A DNA stretch of 64,000 nucleotides, from contig OZ242203.1 in assembly GCA_965206275.1 (NCBI GenBank), forward strand, positions 904,474 to 968,473, given 5' to 3'. Below, piece after piece: positions 20,006-40,762 of this stretch. Made by a program: the position numbers and the translations under genes. Positions within the stretch are counted from its first letter, which is position 1, and every line of letters begins with the position of its first letter. The notes below the pieces were generated by a model that saw nothing but the letters and a program-made list of their open reading frames with translations, was not told the DNA's origin and did no database searches. This stretch comes from Dehalococcoidia bacterium (GTDB taxonomy: Bacteria > Chloroflexota > Dehalococcoidia > UBA6926).

Positions 20006-20261
20006 GCAACCTCAAATGGCCTGCCCCACCGGGCGATCTCGGGGGGCGGTTCGCGCCTGCTCTATTCCCCAACTGTCAATCAACGCATGCACGCGCATAT
20101 CGATATTCAAAACGCGCTACAACGTCTTTTGTCTTGGGAAATTCTCTCCAACTAACCGAGGCGACTACACACCGTTGTCGACCCCGATAACGGATTCAAT
20201 ATGCGCTTGATATGGCGGGGTGTCAAGTTTTTGGGGTTCGGGAGGGGGCTTCGGCAGCACA

Positions 20262-20455
20262 GTGAGATTTTAGATTCTTCGCTGCGCTCAGAATGACATG
20301 GGGGACGGAATGACAGTGGAGGACGGCGCTGCGCGCCGTACTGGATTCCCGCTTTCGCGGGAATGACGAACCCGATGGATTCCGGCTTGCCCCGGAATGA
20401 AGGGAAAGGCACAAATGAGGTTTTAGATTCTTCGCTACGCTCGGAATGACGGAGG
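20262..20455. repeat. composite MITE/REP-like repeat cluster (modules B, E, A, A', B) in the pyrG-ppc intergenic region
   Basis: ttagattcttcgctgcgctcagaatgaca; ggcgctgcgcgccgtactgg; attcccgctttcgcgggaatgacga; attccggcttgccccggaatga; ttagattcttcgctacgctcggaatgac. Confidence 0.85.
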
Positions 20456-20458
20456 GGG

Positions 20459-21934
20459 TTAGCCGAGGAAGTGGCGGAGTTCTCCTGCTTCGGCGATGTA
20501 TTGCGACACCCGGCCGGTGGCACCCTGCTCAATACTCGCCCAGACGGATGTGGTGAGGCCTTCGTGGATGCGGTCAATCTCTTCCGTGAAGCGCACGAGC
20601 AGTCGCCGGTATTTGTCGCCGAGCAGTTGGTTGACGCGTGTCTCGTTGGCGTACTGGAGCGCCGTGGCGAGATCTTCGACAAAGCTCGGGTATATCTCTC
20701 GCAGGTAGGCGAAATCCTCCTGGTCAAGGGCGGCGAGTCCGAGTAGTTCCGGCGGAACGCCGATGGAATAGAGGGCAGTGGTAAAGGCGATGGCGCGGGG
20801 CAGCGTCACGTCGTCCGAGCCAGAGAGGGAGCGCCCGTAGCCGAATAGTCCCACGTGCAATTTGCGCTCTCGTCTTCGCGGGGAGAGCGCGGAGACTGTG
20901 GCGATAGTCGGAGCAAGGCTGCGTACCTGCTTCTGGTACTCAGCGGCGGTCTTGTCGAGGATGGTGATGGCACGTTCTTCATCTATAGGATGCGCGGGCG
21001 CCTGTTCGTGAGCCTGGATTTCGGCGATGCCCGCCGTCACATCCTCACGGGGGTAGTCAAATTTGAATGCGGACTGGACGGTGAGCGTGTGGACGCTGGG
21101 GTATTCACGGAAGGCCCGCGCAGTGTTGACGGGTTTCAGGTGTCCACGGAACGGGACGGAGCCGGCGCCGATAATCGGGTACATCGGGATGCCGGTCTCC
21201 TGCGCGAGGCGGTCAACGCGGTAGAGGGCGCTCTTGAGCAGGATTTCCGCGCCAACCATGCCGTAGTTGAGGGCAGGGTCGCTGCGGGCCAGGAAGACAC
21301 GCTGGTAGGGTTCCTCACGCTCCCGCAGGTAGTCCCGGACGATGTCATCAACGTTGAGCATCTGATCGCGCTCTTCCACGAGCGGGATAACACGAATGCG
21401 CTTCGGGAGGAATTCGCCGATCCAATCGCGAACGGATACATCGCCCAAGAGAGTGCTTGATTCCTGTCCGACGATGAAGTTCTCGTAGTAGGCCGCGATG
21501 CGAGAGAGTTCGTCGGCGGAGGTGGTAAAGGGGAGAATTATCTCCTGTATGGGCGGCTCCACATCATCGCCATAGAATTCATGGGCCACATCAAAGGCGG
21601 TGGGGACGCCCTGCAGCGCCTCAACCATGAGCTTCCGCATCTCAACCTCGATGGCGGGGTTGGGGACGCGCAGGGTGATGACGGTGTCGGTTCCCAACCG
21701 GCGCTCCTCGCGGAAGTAGTCGGAGTAGTTGCTGAGGAGTTTCTGGACGACGTGGGTATCGGTGTCCTTGCCTTCCGAGTCCCACATCTGCTCATCGCAG
21801 CCGAGGCTGAAGGCGTCGACGGCTTCGATGATTTCTCCGTCGCCCTTGATGACACCATCAACGGCGTAGGGAGGCGCCGCAGCGTTGTCCGGGTGCTGGG
21901 TGCTCATCACTTTGGGAATGAGAGGCACTGCCAA
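20459..21934 (-). CDS. ppcA: archaeal-type phosphoenolpyruvate carboxylase (PepcA family)
   Basis: N-terminal IPKVMSTQHPDN is the hallmark of archaeal-type PEPC. The ~490 aa length fits. Confidence 0.8.
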   Translation of the reverse strand: MAVPLIPKVMSTQHPDNAAAPPYAVDGVIKGDGEIIEAVDAFSLGCDEQMWDSEGKDTDTHVVQKLLSNYSDYFREERRLGTDTVITLRVPNPAIEVEMRKLMVEALQGVPTAFDVAHEFYGDDVEPPIQEIILPFTTSADELSRIAAYYENFIVGQESSTLLGDVSVRDWIGEFLPKRIRVIPLVEERDQMLNVDDIVRDYLREREEPYQRVFLARSDPALNYGMVGAEILLKSALYRVDRLAQETGIPMYPIIGAGSVPFRGHLKPVNTARAFREYPSVHTLTVQSAFKFDYPREDVTAGIAEIQAHEQAPAHPIDEERAITILDKTAAEYQKQVRSLAPTIATVSALSPRRRERKLHVGLFGYGRSLSGSDDVTLPRAIAFTTALYSIGVPPELLGLAALDQEDFAYLREIYPSFVEDLATALQYANETRVNQLLGDKYRRLLVRFTEEIDRIHEGLTTSVWASIEQGATGRVSQYIAEAGELRHFLG

Positions 21935-21961
21935 ACTCCAGTCGTCAGGTTGGGTTCATCA

Positions 21962-22068
21962 TATCGGAATGACATGGGGGACGGCGCTGCGCGCCGTACT
22001 GGATTCCCGCTTTCGCGGGAATGACGAGGGGTTCACCCTTCGACAGGCTCAGGGTGAACGGGGGCTCA
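21962..22068. repeat. composite repeat (partial B + E + A + C)
   Basis: ggaatgacatggggg; ggcgctgcgcgccgtactgg; attcccgctttcgcgggaatgacga; ggttcacccttcgacaggctcagggtgaacggggg. Confidence 0.85.
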
Positions 22069-23178
22069 GTCGAAGGTGGTGAGGTTGGTGACGGTTTCAG
22101 GGGTGAGGCGGTGGAGGACTTTGGTGACGAGGCGGACAGCATTGGCGAAATCGTCGCGGTGGATGATGCCGTTGTGGCTGTGGAGATAGCGGGTGGGGAC
22201 GGCAATGTTGATGGAGGGCGCGCCGGAGCCTGATTTCTGCATCTCCGCGCCGTCTTCGCCGTAGCCGCTGAGGACGTTGAACTGGAGCGGCATCTCGAGT
22301 TCTGCGGCGGTGTCGACAAAGAAATCGCGGAGGCGGAGGTTGGGGAGCATGGAGCTGTCATGGAGGAAGACCGTCGGACCTTTGCCGAGTTCCTCCTACG
22401 CTTCGTCCTTAGTGATGCCGGGGTAGTCGCCCGCGACGCCGGACTCAAGGTTGATGCCGATGTCGGGCATGACGTGGAAGGAGCTTGTGTGCGCGCCGCG
22501 GAGGCCAACCTCTTCCTGGACGGTGGCGACGAGGTAGACGGTTGCGGGGAGCGAATCGGCGGATTCGCGGATGGCGCGAGCGACCTCAATGAGGCCGGCA
22601 ACCCCTGCCCTGTCGTCCCATGCCTTGCCGAGGTAGAGTTCACCGCCGGCCATCTCCTGAAACCGGCTGTCCGGCGCAACGGGATCGCCGGGGCGGATGC
22701 CGAGGCGTTGCTCGGCGTCCTCCTTGTTGGCCGCGCCGACGTCGATGAACATGTTCTCTTTCTTGAACACCTGCGAGCGGGCTTCAGGCTGCATAACGTG
22801 GACAGTCTTGATACCGGTGAGGCCGGGTATGGGGCCGTTGCGGGTCATGACGACCCATCGCTGGTTTATCAAGGCTTGGTCAAGCCAGCCGCCGAGGTTC
22901 TGGATGGTCAGGAATCCCTCACTGGTGATCTGGCGGACCATGAGGCCGACTTCGTCCATGTGGGCGGAGAGCATGATGCGGGGGACGCCATCGGTCTCGT
23001 CGCCAATGCGGGCGATGAGGGAGCCGATGCCGTCGGTCTCTATGTCATCGGCGAGGGGAGTGAGTTCGCGTCGGACGATGGCGCGGACGGGGCCTTCGTG
23101 GCCGGTGGGGCCGAAGGCGTTGGAGAGCTCTTCGAGGAGGGTGCGTTGGCGGGCGTGGGTTTCGGGGGATGTGGTCAT
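22066..23178 (-). pseudogene. M42 family metallopeptidase (FrvX/YsdC-like) interrupted by a single in-frame TAG at 22395-22397. Two ORF fragments in the same frame: 22396-23178 and 22066-22350.
   Basis: The N fragment has GHEGPVRAIV...IMLSAHMDEVGLMV. The C fragment has SINIAVPTRYLHSHNG. Translation across the TAG gives contiguous M42 homology (...PGITKDEA*EELGKGPTVFLHD...). Confidence 0.6.
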
Positions 23179-23256
23179 ATCGGATACTTGCCTCTTTCAC
23201 GCTTGGCGCGTCATTCGTCATTATAGATAGGAGTAGCGCAAGGAGAATTTTTTTGC

Positions 23257-25038
23257 ATGTCACATGAGGAACACCAGTCAGTCAGTGCGAACGGCGGCGC
23301 GCTTGAGGAGCGTTACACGGGCGAGAATGACACGCTCATCCGGATGCGGCATTCCGCGGCGCACATGATGGCGGAGGCGGTGCTGTCCATGTTCCCAGAG
23401 GCGAAGCTGGGAATCGGGCCGCCCATCGAGGACGGGTTCTATTACGACTTTCTGCTGCCGCGGACACTTTCGACGGATGATCTGCCGGAGATCGAGGCGC
23501 GGATGCGGGAGAGCGCAAAGGCGGCCGCGCCGTTTGTCGTGGGTGAGATGACGCGTGAGGAGGGTTTACAGCGTTTCGCGGACCAGCCTTTCAAGGTGGA
23601 GATCATCGATAGCCTGACGGACGAGACGGTATCGACATACTCGCATCGGGATTTCACGGACTTGTGCCAAGGGCCTCATGCGGAGTCGACGGACAAGACG
23701 GGGGCGTTCACGCTGACGCGGGTGGCGGGGGCGTACTGGCGCGGCGATGAGAGCAATCCGCAGCTGCAGCGCATCTATGGGGCGCTGTTTGAGACGCAGG
23801 AGGAGCTGGACGCGCACCTGGAGCGGCTGGCTGAGGCGGAGCGACGTGACCATCGGCGGCTGGGGCGCGAGCTTGATCTGTTCTTCTTCGATCCCATCGC
23901 GCCGGCGAGCCCGTTCTTCCTGCCGAAGGGGGCGACGGTCTATAACCTGATGGTGGATTTCATCCGCGAGCTTTATGACCGGTACGGGTACCAGGAGGTC
24001 ATCACGCCGCAAATCTTTTTGACCGACCTGTGGAAGCAGTCGGGGCATTACGACAATTACCTGGAGAACATGTACCTGACGCAGTCGGATGAGATCGAGT
24101 ACGGGGTCAAGCCGATGAACTGCCCCGGGCACTGCGTGATGTACGCCTCTCAACTGCATTCGTATCGAGCATTGCCGCTGCGGTACGCGGACTTTGGGCG
24201 GCTGCATCGGAACGAGCGGTCCGGGGTGACGCACGGGCTGACGCGGGTACGGAGTTTTTCCCAAGACGACGCGCATATCTTCTGCCGCATGGACCAGGTG
24301 CAGGACGAGTTTTCGTCGTTGATCCGGATGATGCGCGACGTGTACTCGGCGTTTGGGCTGAATGAGCCGCGGTACACGCTGTCGCTTCGGCCTGAGAAAC
24401 GGGTGGGGAGCGATGAGACGTGGGACCGGGCGGAGGACGCGCTGCGGGAGGCGCTGACCATCGCAGGGGCGGACTTTGAGGAGATTCCGAATGAGGGCGC
24501 GTTCTACGGGCCGAAGATTGACCTGTTCTCACAGGACGCGCTGCGGCGGGAGTGGCAGTTGAGCACGTTCCAGCTGGACTTCAATCTGCCGGAGCGGTTC
24601 GACCTGGAATACGTGACGGAGGACAACACGCGGGAGCGGCCGGTGATGATTCACCGCGCGATACTCGGCTCGCTGGAGCGGTTTTTTGGGGTTTTATTAG
24701 AGCACAACGCGGGGGCGTTCCCGGTGTGGCTCGCGCCGGTGCAGGCGACGATCATCCCCATCGCGGACCGGCACATCCCCTATGCGGAGCAGGTGCAGGA
24801 GCAGCTGCATGACGCGGGGCTGCGCGTTGAGATTGATGACCGGAATGAGCGGATGAACGCGAAGATCCGTGAGGCGCAGACTCGGCACGTGCCGTACATG
24901 CTGGTGGTCGGCGACCGCGAGGCGGAGTCGGGCGCGGTGGCGGTGCGTCGTCGTGAGGGGAGCGAGGACCTGGGGGCGATGGCGGTTGCGGAGTTTGTGG
25001 GGCGGGTGTTGAGGGAGGTTGAGGCGGGGAGGGGGTGA
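23257..25038 (+). CDS. thrS: threonine--tRNA ligase ThrS
   Basis: Class II aaRS motifs and a ThrRS catalytic core (NCPGHCVMY Zn site, RVRSFSQDDAHIF). AAGGAG SD 11 nt upstream. Confidence 0.93.
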   Translation: MSHEEHQSVSANGGALEERYTGENDTLIRMRHSAAHMMAEAVLSMFPEAKLGIGPPIEDGFYYDFLLPRTLSTDDLPEIEARMRESAKAAAPFVVGEMTREEGLQRFADQPFKVEIIDSLTDETVSTYSHRDFTDLCQGPHAESTDKTGAFTLTRVAGAYWRGDESNPQLQRIYGALFETQEELDAHLERLAEAERRDHRRLGRELDLFFFDPIAPASPFFLPKGATVYNLMVDFIRELYDRYGYQEVITPQIFLTDLWKQSGHYDNYLENMYLTQSDEIEYGVKPMNCPGHCVMYASQLHSYRALPLRYADFGRLHRNERSGVTHGLTRVRSFSQDDAHIFCRMDQVQDEFSSLIRMMRDVYSAFGLNEPRYTLSLRPEKRVGSDETWDRAEDALREALTIAGADFEEIPNEGAFYGPKIDLFSQDALRREWQLSTFQLDFNLPERFDLEYVTEDNTRERPVMIHRAILGSLERFFGVLLEHNAGAFPVWLAPVQATIIPIADRHIPYAEQVQEQLHDAGLRVEIDDRNERMNAKIREAQTRHVPYMLVVGDREAESGAVAVRRREGSEDLGAMAVAEFVGRVLREVEAGRG

Positions 25039-25123
25039 GGAAAGCACCCTGCTCATCACCTTCAGCATCTCCAGTGAGCGCTCCTCTCTTTATATCGGCT
25101 GCATTCAACATTCTTAGGGAATA

Positions 25124-25951
25124 ATGTCAATGCGCAGCGCCATTCTTCTCCGTGATTGGGTCCGTAGCTATTTGGGGAGCTACGTTCGCATAATGCTGCG
25201 GTTGTCTGTGCCAACATTCTGCGCTGGTGTTTTGGCGGTGGTATTCGCCAACGATCTGACAAACGACTTTTTTAGGTACTTAAGATGGAGCACACCTAGT
25301 CTGACAACTACGTACTTCATAGCAGTTCACGGAATCCTGCTTGGCATCGTTGCAATTGGTATCCTTGCAGCGCCATTTGCATTCGCAGCGGCAGTTTTCC
25401 AAGCACGGGGTACGGATTGGCGAGAACGAACACTACTGGGTGTCTGGACCGGCATCGCTTCAGCATCTATGTTGTCGCCATGGATCGAGCTTCAGACCAA
25501 GAATGCCAAGGCCGCACGACTTAGATTAGGTATCAGGGCCTTCAATCGCACCTTGCTGCTGCTCTGGCTATTGGGCCCAATCGCATTGTGGCTGATATGG
25601 ACTGCGGAGCAAATATTCACCTTCACGTTTGTAAGTGGTGCCGAGTTCCTTGGGAAACCGCATGGCGAGTCTGGCTTTGCCTTTGATGATTGGGATGGTC
25701 GCTTCAGTTATTTGATTAACGGAGTCGTTTCAGTGGCTTACTCATCAGCATTGTTTGTCTTGTCCCTCACAAATTGGAGATATGCACTGCGTACAGGCGT
25801 GAGGTCAAGCGAGGAAGTACTCGACCCATCTGTTTGGCAAGATGTGCGCACAAAATGTTGGCCGCTTACTCCTCTGGCGATATTGATTGTCAGTACTCCA
25901 TTTTTGATTGCACTTTACGTCCTTTTGGGATGGATTGGTGTCGAATTGTGA
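25124..25951 (+). CDS. hypothetical multi-pass membrane protein in a lower-GC patch (about 55% vs about 63%)
   Basis: 5-6 predicted TM helices; no recognisable family. Compositional shift seen in sequence. Confidence 0.5.
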   Translation: MSMRSAILLRDWVRSYLGSYVRIMLRLSVPTFCAGVLAVVFANDLTNDFFRYLRWSTPSLTTTYFIAVHGILLGIVAIGILAAPFAFAAAVFQARGTDWRERTLLGVWTGIASASMLSPWIELQTKNAKAARLRLGIRAFNRTLLLLWLLGPIALWLIWTAEQIFTFTFVSGAEFLGKPHGESGFAFDDWDGRFSYLINGVVSVAYSSALFVLSLTNWRYALRTGVRSSEEVLDPSVWQDVRTKCWPLTPLAILIVSTPFLIALYVLLGWIGVEL

Positions 25952-25982
25952 ACCTGGCTTCCTTACAAGGGTGAACGGGGGT

Positions 25983-26095
25983 TTGCTGTGGCCCTTGCGG
26001 GCCACGGGATGGATTCCGGCCTTCGCCGGAATGACGATTGGGCTAGGTCCCCGTTCGGGAGCCCCCTTCGACTGCGCTCAGGGCGAACGGGGGTG
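25983..26095. repeat. composite repeat (module D gtggcccttgcgggccac + A' attccggccttcgccggaatgacg + C')
   Basis: Modules as stated. Its twin lies at 33565-33620. Confidence 0.8.
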
Positions 26096-26100
26096 GTGGC

Positions 26101-26487
26101 CTAGACTCCGCGGATGTCTGTGTGGGGGAAGTCTTGGCCTTTGTAGAGGAGGGGTTCTCCGGTCATGTCTGCGAGGGCGTAGGCGAGGCAGTCGCCGAGG
26201 TTGAGGGCGGCAGGGTGGTTGCCCTTGCCGAATTGTCGCCAAGCGCGTCGGGCGGCGGTGACCTGTTCAGGCGTTACGGGGACGATCTCTATGGACTCGC
26301 GCTGGAGGAATGCATCGAATTCCTCGCCGCCTGCGGGGCCCAGTCGGCTTTCCAAAACGACGGCGGATTCAAGGGCATTGAACGCGGACATTCGGAGACC
26401 GTCCACGCGGAACAGCGCTTCTTCGAAATAGGGGCCGTCAGTCTCTCTCAGCAGGATGGCGCAGATGGCAGATGAATCGATGATCAC
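26101..26487 (-). CDS. vapC: type II toxin VapC (PIN-domain ribonuclease)
   Basis: A GTG start overlaps the vapB stop (GTGA). The N-terminal IIDSSA is a PIN acidic-residue pattern; about 128 aa. Confidence 0.8.
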   Translation of the reverse strand: MIIDSSAICAILLRETDGPYFEEALFRVDGLRMSAFNALESAVVLESRLGPAGGEEFDAFLQRESIEIVPVTPEQVTAARRAWRQFGKGNHPAALNLGDCLAYALADMTGEPLLYKGQDFPHTDIRGV

Positions 26488-26777
26488 TTGGGTTCGCCGT
26501 GCTCGCCATAGAGGGAGTCGAGAAGCTCCTGTGAGGAGGGGGCGGGGCGCAGATGCGGCGCAAGCCGGCGATGCATGTCGGCAATTTCCTTGCGTCGTTC
26601 CGCTTTCCAGCGCAGCCAACCTTCAAGGGAGCGGTCTACTTCCGCGAGCCGTTCTCGTTCCCGTTCCAAGCGCTCCTGGAGGGCGATGGTGATGGCCTGC
26701 GTTTTGTTTTCGTTGGTCAGGGCCGCGAGTTCTTCGGCGAGTCGGTTGGTTTCGGGGTTCTTGATGTTCAGGCTCAT
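26484..26777 (-). CDS. vapB: type II antitoxin VapB (ribbon-helix-helix-like)
   Basis: 97-aa charged protein immediately upstream of the PIN gene, with a 4-nt overlap. Confidence 0.7.
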   Translation of the reverse strand: MSLNIKNPETNRLAEELAALTNENKTQAITIALQERLERERERLAEVDRSLEGWLRWKAERRKEIADMHRRLAPHLRPAPSSQELLDSLYGEHGEPK

Positions 26778-26851
26778 TGTGTACCTCAGGGTAGACGGTT
26801 TGTTATGTGTCTACCCTACTGGTTATGGGGGGCGGGGGCAAGGGGGTTTCG

Positions 26852-27118
26852 GCTGGGTTCACCCTTCGACGGGCTCAGGGTGAACGGGGGTGGTGGGACT
26901 GCCAATACGTTCTTTAGATTCTTCGCTACGCTCAGAATGACATCGGGGTTGTGGCGGCGCTGTGCGCCGCACTGGATTCCCGCCCCGTATCGGAGTACGG
27001 GGCATGCTTTCGCGGGAATGACGATGGGACTTCTATCCTTGACCCGTTGGGGTGGGGAGCCTATCGTACTCGCAGATTGGGGAGGGTGTTCTGGATTCCC
27101 GCTTTCGCGGGAATGACG
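26852..27118. repeat. repeat cluster: module C, then B+E+A with a 23-nt nested palindromic insertion inside hairpin A (26984-27006), then another A
   Basis: attcccgc|cccgtatcggagtacggggcatg|ctttcgcgggaat. Second copy at 27093-27115. Confidence 0.85.
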
Positions 27119-27147
27119 AATGCGCCTAGTCGGTGGGGAGTGTGGTT

Positions 27148-29565
27148 ATGACTAATGGTGGGGCGGGATCGGCGGCTGGCGGCGGGGATTCGGCGCTGGG
27201 GCATTTGCGGGTTGTGGAGATTGGGGAGATTCCCGCGGCGTATTGCGCGGGGTATCTGGCCGGGCTCGGCGCGGACGTGGTCAAGGTTGAGCCGCCGGGG
27301 GGCGATCCTAACCGGATGCATGCGCCGTTCGCGGGCGATATTGCCGACCCGGAGCGCGGTATTCCTTTTCTTAATGCGAATCTGAATCGTCGCAGCATCG
27401 TGCTGGACGTTGAGGATGCGGGCGGCAAGGAGACGCTTGAGAAGCTCATCGAGCGGGCGGATATCTTTGTCGAGTGCACGCCGCCTGGATACCTGGCCTC
27501 TCTGGGTGTTGATGATGAGCGGCTGGAGGCGTTGAATTCCGGGCTTGTGACGGTTTCGATGACGCCGTTTGGGCAGTCGGGGCCGCACAGCGCGTTCGCG
27601 GCTAACGAGGCGGTGATCTCCGCCATGTCCGGCGTGATGATGAGCCAGGGGGATGATGAGCGCTCACCGGTCGTGCTGCCGTGCCAGATCGGCGCGCAGC
27701 TGGCCGCGGCGCTTGGCGCGTATTTGGGAGTCAACGGTGTGCGGCATCGACGGGCGACGGGTCGGGGCCAGCGCATCGATCTCTCGTTGCAGGAGGCGCT
27801 GACATTCGCGACAGTCGGGACGATTGCGCGGTACAGTCAGCGGAGCGAGCTGGTGACGCGGCAGGGACCACGCGGCGGACCCGCGAATATCTATCGAACA
27901 AAGGACGACAAGTACGTCCAGATTGCGGTCTTTATGACCGGGCACTGGCGTGTTCTGGCCCGGCAGTGGATGGAGGACGCGGTGTTGTCCGGCGACGACT
28001 GGGATTCGTCGCAGTACCGGACGGACAACGAGGACCTGGCGCAGATCCTTATACAGTCGTTCGTCGAGCAGTTCGACCGCGATGAGTTCGTGGAGGAGGG
28101 GCAGAAGCGCGGGCTGGCAGTCTGCCCCGTCAACACGTTCGAGGATTTCGTAACGGACGAGCATATGCGGTCACGGGGGTGGTTCCAGACAGTGACGCAT
28201 CCCGTCGTTGGCGAGTACGAGACGCCGGGGCAGCCTTTCATCATGTCAGCGACGCCGTGGAACCAGACGCGCCCTGCCCCGCTGCTGGACCAGCATCGGG
28301 ATGAGGTGCTGGCCGAGATTGAATCGGTTCAGCCGCGTCGTGAGACGTACCCTGCGCCGACGAACGGGAAAGCATCGGACGACGCGCTGCTGGAGGGCAT
28401 CCGCGTGGCGGACATCACGCGGGCGTTCGCGGGGCCGATCGGGACGATGTTCCTCGGCTTCTACGGGGCGGAGGTCATCAAGGTGGAGTCCGAGAGCCTT
28501 GAGGCGAATCGCGAGCCGACGCGTCCGCTGTTCCCCGACATGAACCGGAACAAGATCAGCTGCACACTCGATCTGCGGTCGGACGGCGGCAAGGACCTGT
28601 TCCGCCAAATGGTCAAGGAAAGTGACGTTGTCGTTGACAACTTCAGCGCGACGGTCATGAAGCGACTTGGGCTGGGCTACGACGACCTGACGAAGATCAA
28701 CCCGGGCATCATCCAGATCGGGATGCCGGGGATGGGGTCCGAGGGGCCGCTGAACAACTGGGTGACGTACGGGAACAACCTGCAGGCGGTGACGGGGCTG
28801 TCGCTGCTGTGGGGGCACCCGGACTCGCCGATGCAGAACCATGCGAAGGGGGTCATCCCGGATTACGTGGGCGCTGCGTTCGTGGCGCTATCGACGGCGG
28901 CGGCGCTGGAATACCGAGACGTGACGGGTCGCGGTCAGTTCATCGAGATTGCTCAGGTGGACGGCCAGGGGTCGATGATGGGCCCGGCCATCCTGGACTA
29001 CACGATCAACAAGAACATCTGGGGCAGCGTGGGCTATGACGAGCCGCTGGCGGCCCATTACGCGCCCTACGGGGCGTATGCGTGCCTTTACCAGGACACA
29101 TGGATCGTCATCGCGTGCGAGACGGACGAGCAGTGGCGGGCGCTGGCTCAGGCGATGGGCGCGCCGCACTGGGCGGACGATCCCCGTTTCGCAGACACAG
29201 CGGGGCGGCGTGAGAACCGCGACGAGATCGACCACGAGATAAGCGAGTGGGCCAAGGCGTTCACGTCGCACCAGCTTCTGCACATGCTGCAGAAGGTGGG
29301 CGTGCCTGCGGGCGTGGCGATGAACAGTGAGGACCTGTACCACGATCCGCACTTGCGGGAGCGGGGACACATCGTACAGTCGACGCACTCGACGTGGGGG
29401 ACGCTGTCGCATCACGGGCTGCCTGCGATACCGTCGCTGTCCAAGGCGACGGCGGCGAATCGCGCGCCATGGATCGGTGAGGATAATGAGTACGTGTACA
29501 GGTCCGTGCTTGGGCTTTCAGAGGATGAGATCAGAGAGGGCACGGAGAGTGGGGTGCTGAGGTAG
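27148..29565 (+). CDS. fused tandem double CoA-transferase family III protein (two CaiB/BaiF domains, ~805 aa)
   Basis: Domain 1 signature LRVVEIGEIPAAYCAGYLAGLGADVVKVEPPGG. Domain 2 signature LEGIRVADITRAFAGPIGTMFLGFYGAEVIKVES. ATG at 27148 with GGGGAG 7 nt upstream. Confidence 0.8.
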   Translation: MTNGGAGSAAGGGDSALGHLRVVEIGEIPAAYCAGYLAGLGADVVKVEPPGGDPNRMHAPFAGDIADPERGIPFLNANLNRRSIVLDVEDAGGKETLEKLIERADIFVECTPPGYLASLGVDDERLEALNSGLVTVSMTPFGQSGPHSAFAANEAVISAMSGVMMSQGDDERSPVVLPCQIGAQLAAALGAYLGVNGVRHRRATGRGQRIDLSLQEALTFATVGTIARYSQRSELVTRQGPRGGPANIYRTKDDKYVQIAVFMTGHWRVLARQWMEDAVLSGDDWDSSQYRTDNEDLAQILIQSFVEQFDRDEFVEEGQKRGLAVCPVNTFEDFVTDEHMRSRGWFQTVTHPVVGEYETPGQPFIMSATPWNQTRPAPLLDQHRDEVLAEIESVQPRRETYPAPTNGKASDDALLEGIRVADITRAFAGPIGTMFLGFYGAEVIKVESESLEANREPTRPLFPDMNRNKISCTLDLRSDGGKDLFRQMVKESDVVVDNFSATVMKRLGLGYDDLTKINPGIIQIGMPGMGSEGPLNNWVTYGNNLQAVTGLSLLWGHPDSPMQNHAKGVIPDYVGAAFVALSTAAALEYRDVTGRGQFIEIAQVDGQGSMMGPAILDYTINKNIWGSVGYDEPLAAHYAPYGAYACLYQDTWIVIACETDEQWRALAQAMGAPHWADDPRFADTAGRRENRDEIDHEISEWAKAFTSHQLLHMLQKVGVPAGVAMNSEDLYHDPHLRERGHIVQSTHSTWGTLSHHGLPAIPSLSKATAANRAPWIGEDNEYVYRSVLGLSEDEIREGTESGVLR

Positions 29566-29696
29566 GTATTCGTTCTTGACGTGGTAAATAGGCGGATTGT
29601 AGAGTACGTGCTTGAACAATAGGGATAAAAGGCACTTACAATAGGGATGAGAGCGGCCTGCGATACGGCTGAGAAACGCATAGCGAGGGAGTAGAC

Positions 29697-30296
29697 ATAC
29701 CGAGAGATTATCGCGTCAACCAACGAATCACCGTGCCGGAGGTCCTTGTGGTGACCGACACGGGGGAACGGGTTGGAGTGATGCATACGGCAGACGCCAT
29801 TCAGATGGCGCTGGATCGGGGCCTTGACCTGGTTGAGGTGGCCCCGGGGGCGCAACCACCTGTTTGCCGCATTCTTGACTACGGCCGCTATCGCTATGAG
29901 CAGTCCAAGAAGGAGCGGGAGCTTCGCAAGGGACAGCACACGCAGGAACTCGGCGAGGTGCGGCTCCGCCCCAAGATCGGTCAGCACGATATCGACTTCA
30001 AGACGCGGACGGTTCGCAAGCTGATTGACGGCGGGGACAAGGTCAAGGTTTCGGTTATTTTCAGAGGCCGTGAGGCGACCCACCCCGAGTTGGCAATCAA
30101 TCTGTTGAAGAAGGTATTGGACCAAGTAGAGGACATCGCGGGCATCGACACCGCGCCGCAGTTGGAGGGACGGGGCATGAGCATGATCCTGGCCCCCCTG
30201 AAGCGCAAGAACGCGGCATCATCGAAGCAGGCAGTTGAGGCTCCTGCCGAGGAGAAGGCCGAAGAAGCAGCAGCGGCCGCCGGTTCGCCAGAGTAA
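29697..30296 (+). CDS. infC: translation initiation factor IF-3 with non-canonical AUA start
   Basis: IF3 N-terminal (RVNQRITVPEVLVV..GE..GV) and C-terminal domains present. In-frame stop at 29670-29672. The only start upstream of the conserved N-terminus is ATA at 29697, with AGGGAG 5 nt upstream. Confidence 0.85.
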   Translation: MPRDYRVNQRITVPEVLVVTDTGERVGVMHTADAIQMALDRGLDLVEVAPGAQPPVCRILDYGRYRYEQSKKERELRKGQHTQELGEVRLRPKIGQHDIDFKTRTVRKLIDGGDKVKVSVIFRGREATHPELAINLLKKVLDQVEDIAGIDTAPQLEGRGMSMILAPLKRKNAASSKQAVEAPAEEKAEEAAAAAGSPE

Positions 30297-30346
30297 ACTA
30301 GAGTTAGCACCAGACCGGTTAGAGGCGCGGGGATAGATATATCGTC

Positions 30347-30553
30347 ATGGCAAAGTACAAACTCAAGACGCACAAGGGCACGCAGAAGCGGATCGGCATG
30401 ACCGGTTCCGGCAAGCTGACGAAGCGCAAGGGGCACCAGAGCCACCTGCGGCGTCGCAAGCCGAAGGACGTCAAGCGCCTGTACGGCGATGAGATGCCGT
30501 TGAGCCCGGCAGATCGGCGTCGCGTGCAGCGGCTGCTGCCGTACGGGCCATAA
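30347..30553 (+). CDS. rpmI: 50S ribosomal protein L35
   Basis: MAKYKLKTHKGTQKRI... is the bL35 signature. Confidence 0.95.
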   Translation: MAKYKLKTHKGTQKRIGMTGSGKLTKRKGHQSHLRRRKPKDVKRLYGDEMPLSPADRRRVQRLLPYGP

Positions 30554-30595
30554 GCCGCGCGCTTATTTTCGTTATCTGAAGAGAGGATCACCGAC

Positions 30596-30970
30596 ATGAC
30601 CCGAATCAAGGGCGGCCCGAGAACGCGACGCCGCCACAAGGAAGTCATCAACTTGATGAAGGGGCAATGGGGCTCCCGGCACAAGCTGTTTCGCCGGGCG
30701 CAGGAGTCCCTGCTGCACTCCTGGCAGTACGCTTATGAGCACCGGCGTGAGCGCAAGGGCGATTTCCGTCGGTTGTGGATCACGCGAATCAACGCGGCGG
30801 CGCGTCAGAACGACATCACGTACGGCAACCTGATCCACGGGCTGAAGCTGGCGAACGTGGCCGTCGATCGCAAGATGTTGGCGGATTTGGCGGTGCGAGA
30901 CCCGCAGGCGTTTGCGCGGATCGCGGAGGCGGCGAAAGAGGCGCTGGCGGCGGAGACGGCTGCGGCGTAG
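30596..30970 (+). CDS. rplT: 50S ribosomal protein L20
   Basis: MTRIKGGPRTRRRHKEV... is the bL20 signature. Confidence 0.95.
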   Translation: MTRIKGGPRTRRRHKEVINLMKGQWGSRHKLFRRAQESLLHSWQYAYEHRRERKGDFRRLWITRINAAARQNDITYGNLIHGLKLANVAVDRKMLADLAVRDPQAFARIAEAAKEALAAETAAA

Positions 30971-31051
30971 CTGCGCTACGGCTCTCGGTTCGCGATCCGG
31001 TTTCGATTCCTGAATGAGATATTTGCCGCGTTCCGGCTTTGGCGGTCTGTT

Positions 31052-31142
31052 GAGTCTTTAGATTCCTCGGCTACGCTCGGAATGACATGAGAAGGCGGCG
31101 CTTCGCGCCGCACTGGATTCCCGCTTTCGCGGGAATGACGAG
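31052..31142. repeat. composite repeat (B + E + A), overlapping the annotated 5' end of the following redoxin ORF
   Basis: tttagattcctcggctacgctcggaatgaca; ggcggcgcttcgcgccgcactgg; attcccgctttcgcgggaatgacga. Confidence 0.85.
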
Positions 31143-31833
31143 TCCGTACAATCGGAGTGTGAGGGGATTACTTCCGGGACGCTTTTCTATTCTGTTCATT
31201 GCCGTGTTGGCGGCAATTGTCTTCATCATCGCGGGATGCGGAGAGGATTCACCGACCGCGACTTCTGTACCAACAATTACTCCGACTGCGGTACCTACGG
31301 ACACTCCCCTGCCGACGGCTACCGCGGTGCCAACGGCGACTCCTGAACATGAGCTGCCGCAGGCGCCGGATTTCTCGCTGTCTACGGGGACGGGCGAGCG
31401 GTATTCGTTGGATGAGCTGCTTGCGGGGCGGGATGCGCTCGTGCTGGTGTTCTATCGCAGCTTCCGTTGAGGCATCTGCCAGCAGCAACTGGTCGAGTTG
31501 CAAAGTTTCTACGACGAGTTTGAGGAACGGGACGTCGGGCTGGCGGCGATCAGCACGGACTCGCTGGTCGATGCAGAGCAGATGGAGGTGTTGGCAGAAG
31601 CAGAGTTCCCGGTGCTAGCCGACAGGAACGAGGACGTTTCCAAGGATTTCGGCGTGTTCAACCTGCTTGGGGACGGGGTCGCTGCCCCCGCGACGTTCAT
31701 CATCTTGCCGGACGGCGGGGTTGTGTGGGGGTACGTCGGTGTGGAGATCGGGGACCGGGTGCCGTCGCAGGTCATTTTGGAGGTGCTGGACGTGGTGCTG
31801 GGGGTTGAGGAGGGGGAGCAGGTGAGGGTGTGA
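31087..31833 (+). CDS. candidate selenoprotein: lipoprotein Prx-like/redoxin (AhpC-TSA fold) with in-frame TGA (31468-31470) giving a U-G-I-C redox motif. The true start is likely downstream of 31087.
   Basis: ORFs 31087-31470 and 31498-31833 share a frame and are separated only by one TGA. Lipobox IAGC and a Pro/Thr linker. The redoxin domain PDFSL..GERYSLDEL..ALVLVFYRSFR[TGA]GICQQQLVELQSFYDEFEERDVGLAAISTDS places the TGA three residues before the conserved Cys. Confidence 0.5.
31471..31505 (+). promoter_or_regulatory. bacterial SECIS-like hairpin downstream of the in-frame UGA (gcaac-UGGUCGA-guugc)
   Basis: The stem-loop starts 15 nt after the UGA. GGUC in its apical loop lies at +21..+24, comparable to the E. 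coli fdhF SECIS (G/U at about +19..+22). Confidence 0.4.
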
Positions 31834-31839
31834 GGGAGG

Positions 31840-32760
31840 TTACCCCTTAAACACGTTTTCGTTGTGCCAGTTGAGCGCAGCTCGGTTTGGTTGCTCATCT
31901 TTGTATGGCGGGATGTAGATTGGCTTGGCGTTCAGCGCGTAATAGTTACGCCCGTTCCCGAATTCCTTCCGAATGCTCTCACTCACCTTGAATGTGTAAT
32001 CAGGCGTCACCGTCACATAACCATCATCAAAAAGCTTATGGATATCGCGACGAAGCAGGATGCCATTGCTGATCTCATGTTGCCCGCCTAGGCGATATGG
32101 GTGAATGTGTGCCGCCTCCAGAGCGGGGAATGTGCGCTCGCCGGTAATAGCGCACTTGCGGCCATAGGTGTCGGCAACGAGTACCCGAAAACCGCCTTGC
32201 CCCAATCGCGGCTCAACAAGCTGTGGCGATCCATAGCGAGCCCTCTCTTCCGCAAGCAGCGCTCCTGCTTCCTCCACAGCCGCACGGGCCAGACGTTCCT
32301 GAAAGGCTTCCCTCAGAGCACGTCCGATGCCGATTTCAGAATCGTATCTCTTTCCCGAAACAATGCTCTTGGACCAATCCTCAGGTGGATCCATCCAGTC
32401 AGACTCATCGAAGAAGAATGGCTGTAAGAGAATCCGGCAAATGATCTCATGGCGTGGGCCTTGCCAACCATGCTTGGTCATCCTTGCAAGAAACTCTTCT
32501 GCGGATAGCGCTCCGTTGTTTTCTTCAAAAGCCTCCCAAGCGTAGAAAAGCGGAAGCTTGGTTGAATGCCGGAAGTATGCTCCGCCCACTATCTTGTTTA
32601 TGGGCGCATGCAGTTTGAACAGGAATAAGGAGCCTCGCTCGAGAGAACCAATGTTGTCCTTGGCCGACGGCGACCAGAAGTTGACCTCACTCGGCTTGAG
32701 CTCTCTGAGCGTCTGAAACCAATCATTGTCTGTGACCGCGACGACAAGGTTTATCGCCAT
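31840..32760 (-). CDS. PUA-like (EVE/YTH-like) domain + HNH_2 endonuclease; putative modification-dependent (type IV-like) restriction enzyme
   Basis: C-terminal CAITGERTFPALEAAHIHPY...NGILLRRDIHKLFDDGYVTV is the HNH_2 motif. The N-terminal VNFWSPSA...GSLFLFKLH...IVGGAYF resembles a PUA-like fold. Start set at the ATG (MAINLVV) with GGAG 5 nt upstream. Confidence 0.6.
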   Translation of the reverse strand: MAINLVVAVTDNDWFQTLRELKPSEVNFWSPSAKDNIGSLERGSLFLFKLHAPINKIVGGAYFRHSTKLPLFYAWEAFEENNGALSAEEFLARMTKHGWQGPRHEIICRILLQPFFFDESDWMDPPEDWSKSIVSGKRYDSEIGIGRALREAFQERLARAAVEEAGALLAEERARYGSPQLVEPRLGQGGFRVLVADTYGRKCAITGERTFPALEAAHIHPYRLGGQHEISNGILLRRDIHKLFDDGYVTVTPDYTFKVSESIRKEFGNGRNYYALNAKPIYIPPYKDEQPNRAALNWHNENVFKG

Positions 32761-32884
32761 GTCTGCTCCAGCCATGAGTGGCATTGGGTTAACTGGGCGA
32801 CTACCTCCGAGGATAGCAGATGCGATGAGCTGCGGCTTGCGGCGGATTGAGCGGAGCAGCGGCTACAGAGTTGGGTTGGGTATT

Positions 32885-33005
32885 TGAGTTTTTAGATTCT
32901 TCGCTGCGCTCAGAATGACAGACCCGATGGATTCCGGCTTTCGCCGGAATGAGGGGAGACGGCGCTGTGCGCCGTACTGGATTCCCGCTTTCGCGGGAAT
33001 GACGG
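32885..33005. repeat. composite repeat (B + A' + E + A)
   Basis: tttagattcttcgctgcgctcagaatgaca; attccggctttcgccggaatga; ggcgctgtgcgccgtactgg; attcccgctttcgcgggaatgacgga. Confidence 0.85.
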
Positions 33006-33011
33006 AGGGGG

Positions 33012-33404
33012 TTAGCAGGCGCAGCGGATGTTGGGGTCTCCGATGGTGGCGCCGGGGCCGTGGGTGGCGTAGCCGTCGCGTCGCCACCAGTCAAGGCCGC
33101 CGATGAGTTCTCGCACCTGGAAGCCCAGTTCAGCCAGTTTCAAGGCCGTCTTGGTGGAGGCGTTGCAGCCAATGCCGTCGCAGTAACAGACGTAGATTCT
33201 TGTTTTGTCCAGCGATGCGGTGGAGTCGGCGTTGATCTCTCGATGGGGGAGGCTTATCGCGCCGGGGATGTGTTCCTGTTCGTAGGCGAAGTGGGCACGG
33301 CCGTCCACGACGATGATTGGCTCATCGTTTTGGAGGCTTTCGAAGAGGTCTGCGGAGTCGGTTTCGTAGGCGAGTTTGTGGCGGTAGAAGTCCAGTTGGT
33401 CCAT
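33012..33404 (-). CDS. rhodanese-like sulfurtransferase domain protein
   Basis: 130 aa. Active-site loop YCDGIGCNAS (Cys-x-G-x-x), a single rhodanese domain. Confidence 0.75.
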   Translation of the reverse strand: MDQLDFYRHKLAYETDSADLFESLQNDEPIIVVDGRAHFAYEQEHIPGAISLPHREINADSTASLDKTRIYVCYCDGIGCNASTKTALKLAELGFQVRELIGGLDWWRRDGYATHGPGATIGDPNIRCAC

Positions 33405-33480
33405 GAGTTTGGTTGCCCTTTCTGAGGTTGGGTGGATTGGTGCGGGGTTAAAGCTTAGCGGAGGCTAGGTGGGGTGTCAC

Positions 33481-33775
33481 GGGGTTCACCCTTCGACAAG
33501 CTCAGGGTGAACGGGTGGTGGCTCAGGGTGAGCGGGCTAGATCTAGGCTCGAGGTGAACGGGGGGATGTGTTGTGGCCCTGCGGGCCACGGGGTGGATTC
33601 CGGCCTTCGCCGGAATGACGGATGGTTTGCGGAATTGAGTCTTTAGATTCTTCGACTCCGCTACGCTCCGCTCAGAATGACATGGGGAGGAGGCGCTGTG
33701 CGCCGCACTGGATTCCCGCTTTCGCGGGAATGACGAGGGGGTTCACCCTTCGACAAGCTCAGGGTGAACGGGACG
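33481..33775. repeat. dense repeat array (C, C-like, D + A', B + E + A + C) filling the rhodanese/DUF1801 intergenic region
   Basis: Two ggttcacccttcgacaagctcagggtgaacgg copies; gtggccctgcgggccac + attccggccttcgccggaatgacg; ttagattcttcg...ctcagaatgaca; ggcgctgtgcgccgcactgg; attcccgctttcgcgggaatgacga. Confidence 0.85.
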
Positions 33776-40467: not shown

Positions 40468-40639
40468 GTCCGCCTGATGACGATTCAGTTCATTTTCGCA
40501 GCTTGAAGCCCTTATGCTGGGCAATTCAATTGCTAGTCTCAGCGAGGGCCTTGTGCAAAATCTCCCGTGATACTTTCATTCAGTATCGGACACGTTTCAG
40601 AGTAATTTGCCCAGCCTCTACGCGATAACGGGCGGGGCG

Positions 40640-40745
40640 CGTTCCGGCCTTGGCGGTCTATTGAGGCTTTGGATTCTTCGCTTCGCTCGGAATGACATAG
40701 GGGGTTCCCCCCTCACCCCGGCCCTCTCTCTGAGGGAGAGGGGGT
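40640..40745. repeat. repeat copy (module B variant ttggattcttcgcttcgctcggaatgacata + C-like gggggttcccccctcaccccggccctctctctgagggagaggggg)
   Basis: Matches modules elsewhere in the window. Confidence 0.7.
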
Positions 40746-40762
40746 GGGCGGCAGGGCGCGGC

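Follow-up and report, generated by a model that had tools for sequence, protein, structure and literature searches.

Introduction

Repetitive extragenic palindromes (REPs) are among the commonest non-coding repeats of bacteria, and for the CGTC half of them we know of no mobilizing enzyme. This work concerns a set of short hairpin modules, here called A to H, that crowd the intergenic regions of a 64,000-nucleotide stretch of a Dehalococcoidia genome (phylum Chloroflexota; contig OZ242203.1, positions 904,474 to 968,473), hereafter the window. The closest described relatives of these modules are the CGTC-1 REPs, which carry an unpaired CGTC tag (variants TGTC and CCTC), an 8-bp stem with A-T at pairs 1 and 2, a 4-nt loop, and a 3-nt tail fitting CCA, and which occur in tens to thousands of copies per genome (PMC3733652). 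They were equated with Neisseria dRS3 and Rickettsia conorii RPE-6 by Di Nocera, De Gregorio and Rocco (2013, PMC3733652), whose supplement lists DSRFRGND, VIPAKAGI, and WIPAFAGMT as peptides encoded by CGTC-1 repeats. In Neisseria, dRS3 and RS elements make up the neisserial intergenic mosaic elements, or NIMEs (Parkhill 2000; Bentley 2007).

Module A is a CGTC-1 REP, the same as Neisseria dRS3, and modules B and C belong to related families, which likewise carry a tag and in which the stems covary and the loop is conserved. The arrays that they form are a member, in a new phylum, of the published CGTC-REP/NIME-like class. As in the CGTC-1 REPs, module A has the same tag, 8-bp AT-starting stem, 4-nt loop, and CCA tail, the same peptides are encoded (DSRFRGND, VIPAKAGI, and IPAFAGMT), in-frame copies occur within genes, including a DNA-repair gene, and no transposase adjoins the repeats. 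However, the CGTC-1 REPs were reported from five phyla that do not include Chloroflexota, and their families are mostly inverted "HH" dimers with negligible head-to-tail arrangement, whereas all copies here are head to tail on one strand with no inverted pairs. The arrays are also architecturally equivalent to NIMEs and to the bacterial interspersed mosaic elements (BIMEs) of Escherichia coli. They share with NIMEs the ATTCCC-N8-GGGAAT hairpins set among other short repeat families, the variation in length and content between relatives at syntenic sites, and the variable accessory genes that adjoin them. In contrast, NIMEs were stated to be absent outside Neisseria, they interleave RS elements of 50 to 150 bp rather than the bacteria-wide hairpin modules B, C, and F and short G-rich linkers seen here, and no Nf-phage or IS110-type integrase accompanies the present arrays.

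Results

Modules A, B, and C are covarying hairpins found across bacteria

Read on the minus strand, module A is CGTC-ATTCCCGC-GAAA-GCGGGAAT-CCA, which agrees point by point with CGTC-1. The tag, which reads GACG in reverse, ends 11 of the 13 A copies, and the remaining two end in GAGG (CCTC) and GAAG. All stems are 8 bp long and start with AT (ATTCCCGC/GCGGGAAT or ATTCCGGC/GCCGGAAT), and the loops have 4 nt (TTTC, CTTC, or TTGC), one copy carrying a 24-nt insertion nested in its loop. The CCA tail appears as TGG (CTGG, ATGG, or GTGG) before 12 of the 13 copies, with AAG before the copy at 10971, and CTGG precedes most of the 135 exact A copies in unrelated contigs. Nine A copies fit the dRS3 consensus (ATTCCCNNNNNNNNGGGAAT) exactly, and the four A'/A'' copies, with ATTCCGGC, deviate from it at position 6. 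These dRS3-type units are interleaved with modules B, C, D, E, and G. The original prediction, made from the letters of the window, had described a family of palindromic repeats resembling REPs or miniature inverted-repeat transposable elements (MITEs); it missed both the identity with the published CGTC-1/dRS3 class and the strict single orientation described below.

Modules A, B, and C are real hairpins maintained by compensatory change. Among 26 A variants picked by their flanks and loop only, 95.7% of cells were paired and compensatory changes were present at 4 of the 8 pairs, a level of covariation unmatched in 500 shuffles (0/500). B and C share the loop TTCG-N4-GCTCAG; stems beside the B/C loop (TTCG-N4-6-GCTCA), collected via the loop alone, were complementary far above shuffled partners and covary. 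In DNA folding, A and C formed hairpins at -8 to -9 kcal/mol.

Exact copies of the modules were found far from this lineage. For A, 109 IMG/VR stretches contain the exact 24-mer; their G+C contents range from 0.40 to 0.71, and some are Neisseria-type NIME arrays with a 77-nt period. Exact B and C occur in 92 and more than 120 stretches, respectively. All three match plasmids or chromids of Azospirillum, Sphingobium, Sinorhizobium, Neisseria, Comamonas, Photobacterium, Calothrix, and Hymenobacter, so that the taxa with exact copies comprise Alpha-, Beta-, and Gammaproteobacteria, Cyanobacteria, and Bacteroidota. Because exact copies of A, B, and C lie in hundreds of unrelated contigs of several phyla, the modules are not a lineage-specific MITE. 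The "one element family" originally predicted is thus replaced by separate bacteria-wide modules, each in about 100 or more unrelated IMG/VR contigs. Module F had 11 exact IMG/VR contig matches. E had no viral match, H had one, and the E-A junction had three metagenome matches, all unrelated; these units (E, H, and the E-A doublet) occur almost exclusively in the lineage. Searches of the literature by module sequence and encoded peptide found no description matching B or C. We are confident that the arrays as a whole are a CGTC-type REP mosaic.

Ten arrays fill gaps in a conserved gene neighborhood

Ten loci, spread from 10971 to 40748, together carry some 45 copies of eight or more short modules. 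A search for module A that tolerated up to 3 mismatches gave nine matches, all on the plus strand, compared to none expected from 100 shuffles; a regular-expression census gave 13 A-type copies once the A' variants and the nested-insertion copy were included. These 13 copies lie in a 30-kb part of the window, and related loci have 1 to 6 copies per 22 kb. Module C gave four canonical matches, all on the plus strand with none expected, in addition to C' at 18236 and 26060 and several 3'-half fragments, and the census counted seven B, seven E, and two D. The original prediction does not name three further modules: F (40708-40748), a 28-nt 5' leader of B called G (31027 and 40638), and the 24-nt hairpin H, nested in an A loop (26984-27007). 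The features are as follows.

10971..10999, plus strand: array 1, a single A (CGTC-1 REP); exact A match, in frame within the AlkZ-like DNA glycosylase gene 10155-11333, where it encodes DSRFRGNDE.
18233..18322, plus strand: array 2, C'-E'-A; within the 3' end of the pyrG open reading frame (ORF; 18197-20005, minus strand), whose last ~45 codons are module sequence.
20250..20455, plus strand: array 3, B - B fragment - E - A - A'' - B; fills the gap from the pyrG promoter to the stop codon of the PEP carboxylase gene.
21962..22065, plus strand: array 4, B 3' fragment - E - A - C; from the start of the PEP carboxylase gene to the stop codon of the M42 peptidase gene (22066-22068).
25965..26095, plus strand: array 5, C 3' fragment - D - A' - hairpin - C'; between the convergent ORF 25124-25951 and the PIN toxin gene 26101-26619.
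26854..27120, plus strand: array 6, C - B - E - A* - promoter-like spacer - A, where A* is A with the 24-nt H in its loop; divergent region upstream of the CoA-transferase gene (27133).
26984..27007, plus strand: hairpin H, CCCGTATCGGAGTACGGGGCATGC; placed between GC and TTTC of an A loop.
31027..31142, plus strand: array 7, G - B - E - A; downstream of the stop codon of rplT (L20).
32892..33006, plus strand: array 8, B - A' - E - A; from the start of the HNH gene to the stop codon of the rhodanese gene (33012).
33481..33775, plus strand: array 9, C - two C fragments - D - A' - B - E - A - C; fills the gap from the start of the rhodanese gene to the stop codon of the DUF1801 gene (33777).
40638..40748, plus strand: array 10, G - B - F, where F is the palindrome CCCCCTCACCCCGGCCCTCTC...GAGAGGGGGTGGG.

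The observation in the original prediction is confirmed, and its interpretation is supported in part. It had spoken of at least 11 loci and listed ten; all ten were found to hold the modules ascribed to them. The frame that it saw in common between A and B was recovered as GATTC...GAATGAC, and GAATGAC occurs 26 times on the plus strand of the window versus 3 times on the minus strand. All seven E copies are followed by A and both D copies by A', and five of the seven B copies precede E-A; the proposed order B-E-A-C thus summarizes the arrays fairly.

The arrays occupy entire intergenic gaps and often end 0 to 5 nt short of a stop codon (20459, 22066, 33012, and 33777). Between the two A copies of array 6 is a promoter-like TTGACC-17-TATCGT site (27039-27067); it precedes the second copy (27091-27118), which is therefore placed in the 5' leader of the CoA-transferase gene. 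As predicted, the modules generate spurious ORFs. Several mechanical ORFs of at least 100 aa cross arrays, the peptides IPAFAGMT, DSRFRGND, VIPAKAGIQ, and LRQAQGER are correct translations of the modules, and a 95-aa array-encoded peptide used as a query matched no proteins. Two genuine genes also contain modules. In relatives without these modules, pyrG stops ~17 codons past the conserved core, and in an alignment AlkZ (5UUJ) has ~10 residues fewer at the position of A in the AlkZ-like gene. Since the modules both seed spurious ORFs and change gene ends, as in the pyrG tail and the AlkZ-like insertion, annotation pipelines for such metagenome-assembled genomes (MAGs) ought to mask them.

The window has a G+C content of 61.4%. 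A protein-guided scan assigned it to a Dehalococcoidia MAG lineage and gave 17 syntenic relatives of 80 to 96% identity, several of them complete chromosomes of ~1.9 Mb; the lineage DNA examined, the window plus 22 related loci, came to 482 kb (loci carry L numbers below). Gene order is conserved across the relatives, and the content of the gaps differs. Pfam scans showed a housekeeping neighborhood: pst/phoU, CoA-transferases, the AlkZ-like glycosylase, MeaB, Rho, CTP synthase, an archaeal-type PEP carboxylase, the M42 peptidase, ThrRS, the PIN toxin, a fused CoA-transferase, IF3, L20, the HNH protein, rhodanese, DUF1801, a nitroreductase, and an opuA-type transporter. The scans found no transposase, integrase, or cas genes in the window.

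Several of these genes have features of their own. On the minus strand, a giant ORF at 41503-63981 runs past the window edge and codes for more than 7,492 aa; its product has Calx-beta/FN3 repeats and LapA-like domains, and the ORF consists of ~13 tandem copies of a ~1.09-kb unit and a 12/24-nt microrepeat at 41884-42291. The M42 peptidase gene (22066-23178, minus strand) has an in-frame TAG at 22396-22398 where 16 of 16 relatives have CAG or CAA (Gln), which is either a pseudogene mutation or a sequencing error. The Rho ORF (16305-18080, minus strand; 591 aa) has a ~220-aa N-terminal extension with a 30-nt tandem repeat at 17848-17937. Finally, a conserved leader of ~125 nt precedes the opuA-type ABC transporter gene in L326 (19410-19558) and 11 other relatives and is cleanly absent from the window (~35114). 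It had no Rfam match at E ≤ 1 and may therefore be an undescribed cis-regulatory RNA.

Other classes of repeat were considered and rejected. An assembly artifact is ruled out by the recurrence of the arrays in 17 independent MAGs, including complete chromosomes. The original prediction had already set CRISPR aside, and we agree: the modules are irregularly spaced and of several types, and cas genes are absent. Its reading of the modules as REP-like is upheld, and its alternative of a MITE in the usual sense is not, since there are no bracketing terminal inverted repeats, no target-site duplications, and no DDE transposase; comparisons of filled with empty sites showed neither consistent duplication nor bracketing inverted repeats. 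A tRNA or known RNA family, the explanation that it had asked to be checked, is excluded by the absence of ARAGORN matches and of Rfam matches either at the gathering score or, over 18-41 kb, at E ≤ 1. An integron attC site (RYYYAAC...GTTRRRY with intI) does not fit either, as C is GTTCACCC...GGGTGAAC, with the core sites in the opposite order, and there is no integrase.

Module orientation tracks GC skew, not transcription

All polar modules of the window lie on the plus strand and none on the minus strand, despite the fact that the genes flanking the arrays, in the window as in the relatives, lie on both strands. GC skew is positive over the entire window (+0.05 to +0.27), and the TGG-hairpin-GACG strand is the G-rich strand in every copy, regardless of the direction of the neighboring gene. 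In 17 relatives with a skew above 0.06, 121 modules were on the plus strand compared to 0 on the minus strand, including independent insertions at non-orthologous gaps. A weaker form of the same trend was apparent in unrelated contigs. Where the flanking genes were co-directional, modules were on the G-rich strand in a ratio of 79:33 (p = 1.6e-5); where the genes were on the C-rich strand, the ratio was 37:9; and the ratio of sense to antisense modules was 51:61. Nearest-neighbor DNA folding gave equal energies for both module strands. Because of this, folding cannot test whether the more stable GAAA/sheared G-A strand is excluded from the lagging-strand template.

Modules are gained and lost unit by unit among relatives

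What changes in the scarce dispensable spacer of this ~1.9-Mb streamlined genome is the single module, which is gained, lost, or nested in another. The sites used are those immediately after stop codons, hairpin loops, and non-conserved gene tails. A good example is the gap at 29561-29739. It is empty in the window and in L325; L324 (96% aa identity) has C-E'-A-C there, a composite of 150 nt, L326 has F, L328 and L338 have F and A, five other relatives, in the range L329-L335, have a single C, and L332 and possibly L344 have apparent decayed C remnants. The sites of the arrays themselves vary similarly. The site of array 2 has no modules in L328 and L332 and only a GGAATGAC remnant in L326. 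The gap of array 3 (20201-20461) is 54 to 69 nt and module-free in L327, L328, L329, and L332 and has another module set in L326. At the site of array 4, ten relatives have an unrelated spacer of 42 to 60 nt, and L327 has a full B-E-A with a nested H. The site of array 7 spans 111 to 117 nt without modules in L329, L332, and L340 and holds insertions of 1.1 to 1.5 kb in L326, L330, and L337, and the gap of array 9 is 101 nt and module-free in L330 and 180 to 525 nt with other combinations in L326 to L329.

Hairpin H shows nesting most directly. The A copy at 27091 lacks it in the window, whereas the orthologues of that copy in L335, L337, and L344 carry it; H also lies in four other A loops of L327, within F in L331 and L338 but not in the orthologous F of L328, and at the center of an unrelated palindrome in L404, an unrelated contig. 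These comparisons of gaps and of H mean that units of ~24 to 30 nt are gained and lost individually, with a preference for hairpin loops and dispensable spacer. Relatives whose proteins are 90 to 96% identical differ by entire modules or composites at shared gaps, in agreement with the recent activity originally proposed, and turnover is most likely still ongoing.

Two further observations concern mobile-looking DNA in these regions. Module F (40708-40748; CCCCTCACCC...GAGGGAGAGGGGG) is found at other sites in L326 (~12420-12460), L328, L338, and L327. Accessory genes that differ among relatives (PIN toxin, HNH, DUF262-like, toxin-antitoxin pairs, and lipoproteins) fill the segments between arrays, at 25124-26850 and 31199-32784 of the window, 7493-9711 of L326, 6099-6764 and 14855-16756 of L327, and 1058-3027 of L330; these segments resemble the "minimal mobile elements" beside NIME arrays.

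Tagged hairpins bracket a GIY-YIG nuclease gene in other genomes

When inverted module pairs were screened for the ORFs that they enclose, a GIY-YIG ORF turned up between B modules, and tblastn found two further GIY-YIG ORFs between A or A-like modules. A sample of 25 loci was then assembled by protein homology alone (11 IMG/VR stretches, 8 named records, and 6 chromosomal contigs). In nearly all 25, the stand-alone gene of ~95 aa (PF01541) has tagged A, A-like, or B-type hairpins on one or both sides within ~200 nt. The recurrent layout is GTCA-hairpin-CCAG, gene, CTGG-hairpin-TGAC, with the tags outward, and the tags of the bracketing hairpins are CGTC/TGTC. Within 200 nt of the ends of the gene, strictly defined tagged hairpins showed a 29-fold enrichment (p = 4e-10), and the hairpin type tracks the nuclease clade. 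In Aeromonas caviae, one of just two A-like places in 4.9 Mb is 60 nt from the GIY-YIG gene. The family has at least 7,996 clusters, and the literature searched held no link between GIY-YIG and REPs. Hairpin-bracketed genes lie at L024 3046-3338 and L190 10871-11146 and in L426-L433 and L434-L442, in hosts that include Neisseria, Aeromonas, Azospirillum (between sufB and sufC), Sinorhizobium, Novosphingobium, Spirosoma, Planktothrix, and many uncultured contigs.

The RAYT that the original prediction suggested looking for was not found: no homologue of E. coli RayT (E ≤ 1) was present in the window, the 22 related loci, or ~300 module-bearing contigs. RAYT homologues of Neisseria gonorrhoeae (L396, NZ_CP119140.1 1074425-1076297) and of a Chloroflexota plasmid (L397, CP069395.1) are directly flanked by GTAG-type hairpins, not by A-type ones. 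These flanks agree with the finding of Di Nocera et al. that CGTC repeats are without a dedicated transposase. The plasmid CP069395.1 is itself a textbook REPtron with three downstream REPIN-like doublets. Among the PLSDB records, NZ_CP119140.1, NZ_CP119142.1, NZ_AP026896.1, and CP125156.1 are listed as plasmids, yet at 2 to 5 Mb they are chromosome-sized; they are of N. gonorrhoeae, A. caviae, and Klebsiella pneumoniae and could mislead users of the collection.

Discussion

The best overall explanation, to which we give a probability of roughly 55%, sees the arrays as intergenic mosaics in which the hairpin modules, non-coding and non-autonomous members of the CGTC-tagged REP superfamily, spread as follows. 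The G-rich strand would be the lagging-strand template, and copies would arise or survive at the replication fork by way of a hairpin intermediate in single-stranded form. The enzyme that processes this intermediate would be encoded at another place in the genome, the likeliest partner being the ~95-aa stand-alone GIY-YIG nuclease and the second candidate a RAYT-type Y1 transposase. Solo modules and doublets may be the ends or internally deleted derivatives of a ~430-bp GIY-YIG unit. Coupling of the modules to the replication strand is the more probable part of this proposal, and the strand counts favor it. That the GIY-YIG nuclease is the mobilizing partner in this genome is a tentative suggestion, and the wider idea that CGTC/TGTC REPs (dRS3, RPE-6, A, and B) are hairpin ends or internally deleted derivatives of a vast, undescribed family of such units is put forward just as cautiously.

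Several observations weigh against this explanation. No GIY-YIG, RAYT, or other transposase gene was found in the 482 kb of lineage DNA, and the association of the GIY-YIG gene with the hairpins could reflect homing of the gene into REP doublets rather than mobilization of them. The lineage orientation data cover one syntenic chromosome arm. Relatives with near-zero skew (L336 and L342) have both module orientations, and tagged dRS3 of N. gonorrhoeae was unbiased (9:10 in a sample of 6 x 50 kb), unlike the strictly polar arrays here. Recognition of the CGTC-tagged strand, by analogy with that of GTAG by RAYT, would place the recognized strand on the presumed leading-strand template and so run counter to the IS608 rule. 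At several places the junctions look like replacements, truncations, or deletions and not clean insertions (e.g., the site at 21901-22074), and filled and empty sites showed no consistent target duplication. B is weak as a DNA hairpin, folding at just -1.7 kcal/mol (z of -0.4), and is therefore conserved as a sequence and not as a strong hairpin. On the counts of 121:0, 79:33, and 9:10, the strand bias is strong in the lineage, present on average elsewhere, and not universal.

A classical REP/REPIN system, in which a single-copy RAYT (TnpA-REP, Y1 HUH) elsewhere in the genome mobilizes the modules in trans, has been proposed for E. coli, Pseudomonas, and, by correlation, Neisseria. There, the master sequence ATTCCCGCGCAGGCGGGAATC was tied by correlation to a Group 2 RAYT, and REPINs were reported to decay in genomes whose RAYT carries a frameshift (Bertels and Rainey, bioRxiv 10.1101/2021.07.10.451892). 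Y1 enzymes work on hairpins of the lagging-strand template, which would account for the strand bias, and RAYTs are known in Chloroflexota, on the plasmid described above. However, Di Nocera (2013, PMC3733652) found a transposase flanked by CGTC repeats in no species, the RAYT genes inspected here have GTAG-type flanks, the homology search found none near the modules, and the window has no REPINs (inverted REP doublets), all copies being head to tail. We regard this system as an unlikely source of the arrays. The opposite possibility is that no dedicated enzyme is involved and that illegitimate or homologous recombination, slippage, template switching, and exchange with incoming DNA (the NIME hypothesis) build the arrays. 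Inverted copies would then be removed, as they cause harmful inversions or form unstable lagging-strand-template hairpins, hence the uniform orientation. The mosaic content of the arrays fits this, as do the 5'-truncated modules that abut genes (21962 and 25965), the replacement rather than mere interruption of ancestral spacer, the variable accessory genes between arrays, as in Neisseria (Bentley 2007, PMC1797815), and the skewless relatives without strand bias. Yet the presence of exact 24- to 30-nt modules in different phyla, together with the conservation of their tags and loops and the covariation of their stems, points to sequence-specific recognition, the 24-nt H takes the same loop position in different host hairpins, and the modules are below the usual length minimum for RecA recombination. 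Recombination without such an enzyme seems to us about as improbable as the RAYT system.

It is far less probable still that the modules are mainly RNA elements, that is, stabilizers of 3' untranslated regions, terminators, or small RNAs selected at gene ends. Most arrays do lie just 3' of stop codons, A and C are stable hairpins, and REPs elsewhere affect mRNA stability (PMC3733652). However, orientation is independent of transcription, with five arrays antisense and three sense to the upstream gene in addition to the 51:61 ratio in unrelated contigs. Moreover, the modules have no T-run, none of the 13 terminator-like sites in the window overlaps any module, no module matched Rfam, and copies also lie within 5' leaders, a divergent promoter region, and ORFs.

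The arrays, and the GIY-YIG partner proposed for them, can be compared with other systems. The REP-BIME-REPIN elements of E. coli and Pseudomonas are likewise short, tagged, high-copy hairpins in gaps, with mosaic clusters and covarying stems, and the REPtron model has a nuclease gene, present in one copy, with its own hairpins on its flanks, a likeness shared by the model proposed here. The tag there is GTAG and here CGTC, there are no inverted doublets or RAYT here, and in place of a Y1 HUH enzyme the gene found elsewhere with A- or B-type flanking hairpins encodes a GIY-YIG nuclease. The "peel and paste" transposition of IS200/IS605 also involves hairpin ends, no target duplication, and an orientation tied to the replication strand, and insertion into single-stranded loops is plausible here too. 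In contrast, there is no TnpA or TnpB here, the units are just 25 to 35 nt, and by analogy with GTAG the strand expected to be recognized would be the presumed leading-strand template. Free-standing GIY-YIG homing endonucleases and structure-specific GIY-YIG nucleases (I-TevI, Slx1, and the UvrC N-terminal domain) are the comparison group for the ~95-aa protein. Like it, they have a small PF01541 catalytic domain, and the short mobile-looking gene can be wedged among housekeeping genes, as between sufB and sufC of Azospirillum. The ~95-aa protein differs in having no DNA-binding extension and in being encoded by a usually single-copy gene bracketed by inverted tagged hairpins, and its activity on hairpins is putative.

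With this work, the CGTC class and NIME-like mosaics are extended to Chloroflexota, and two further hairpin families that span bacteria, B and C, with a conserved 13- to 14-nt loop and covarying stems, are seen to accompany CGTC REPs. The locking of modules to one strand in a strongly asymmetric genome points to a single-stranded intermediate. If the role suggested for the GIY-YIG nuclease is true, it would make a second kind of REPtron, with GIY-YIG in place of Y1 HUH, and would fill the "missing" enzyme slot of the CGTC class; the activity of the GIY-YIG unit would then be bound to the replication strand in genomes with strong strand asymmetry. The hairpins that bracket the GIY-YIG gene in many phyla open a cheap biochemical test of how these repeats spread.

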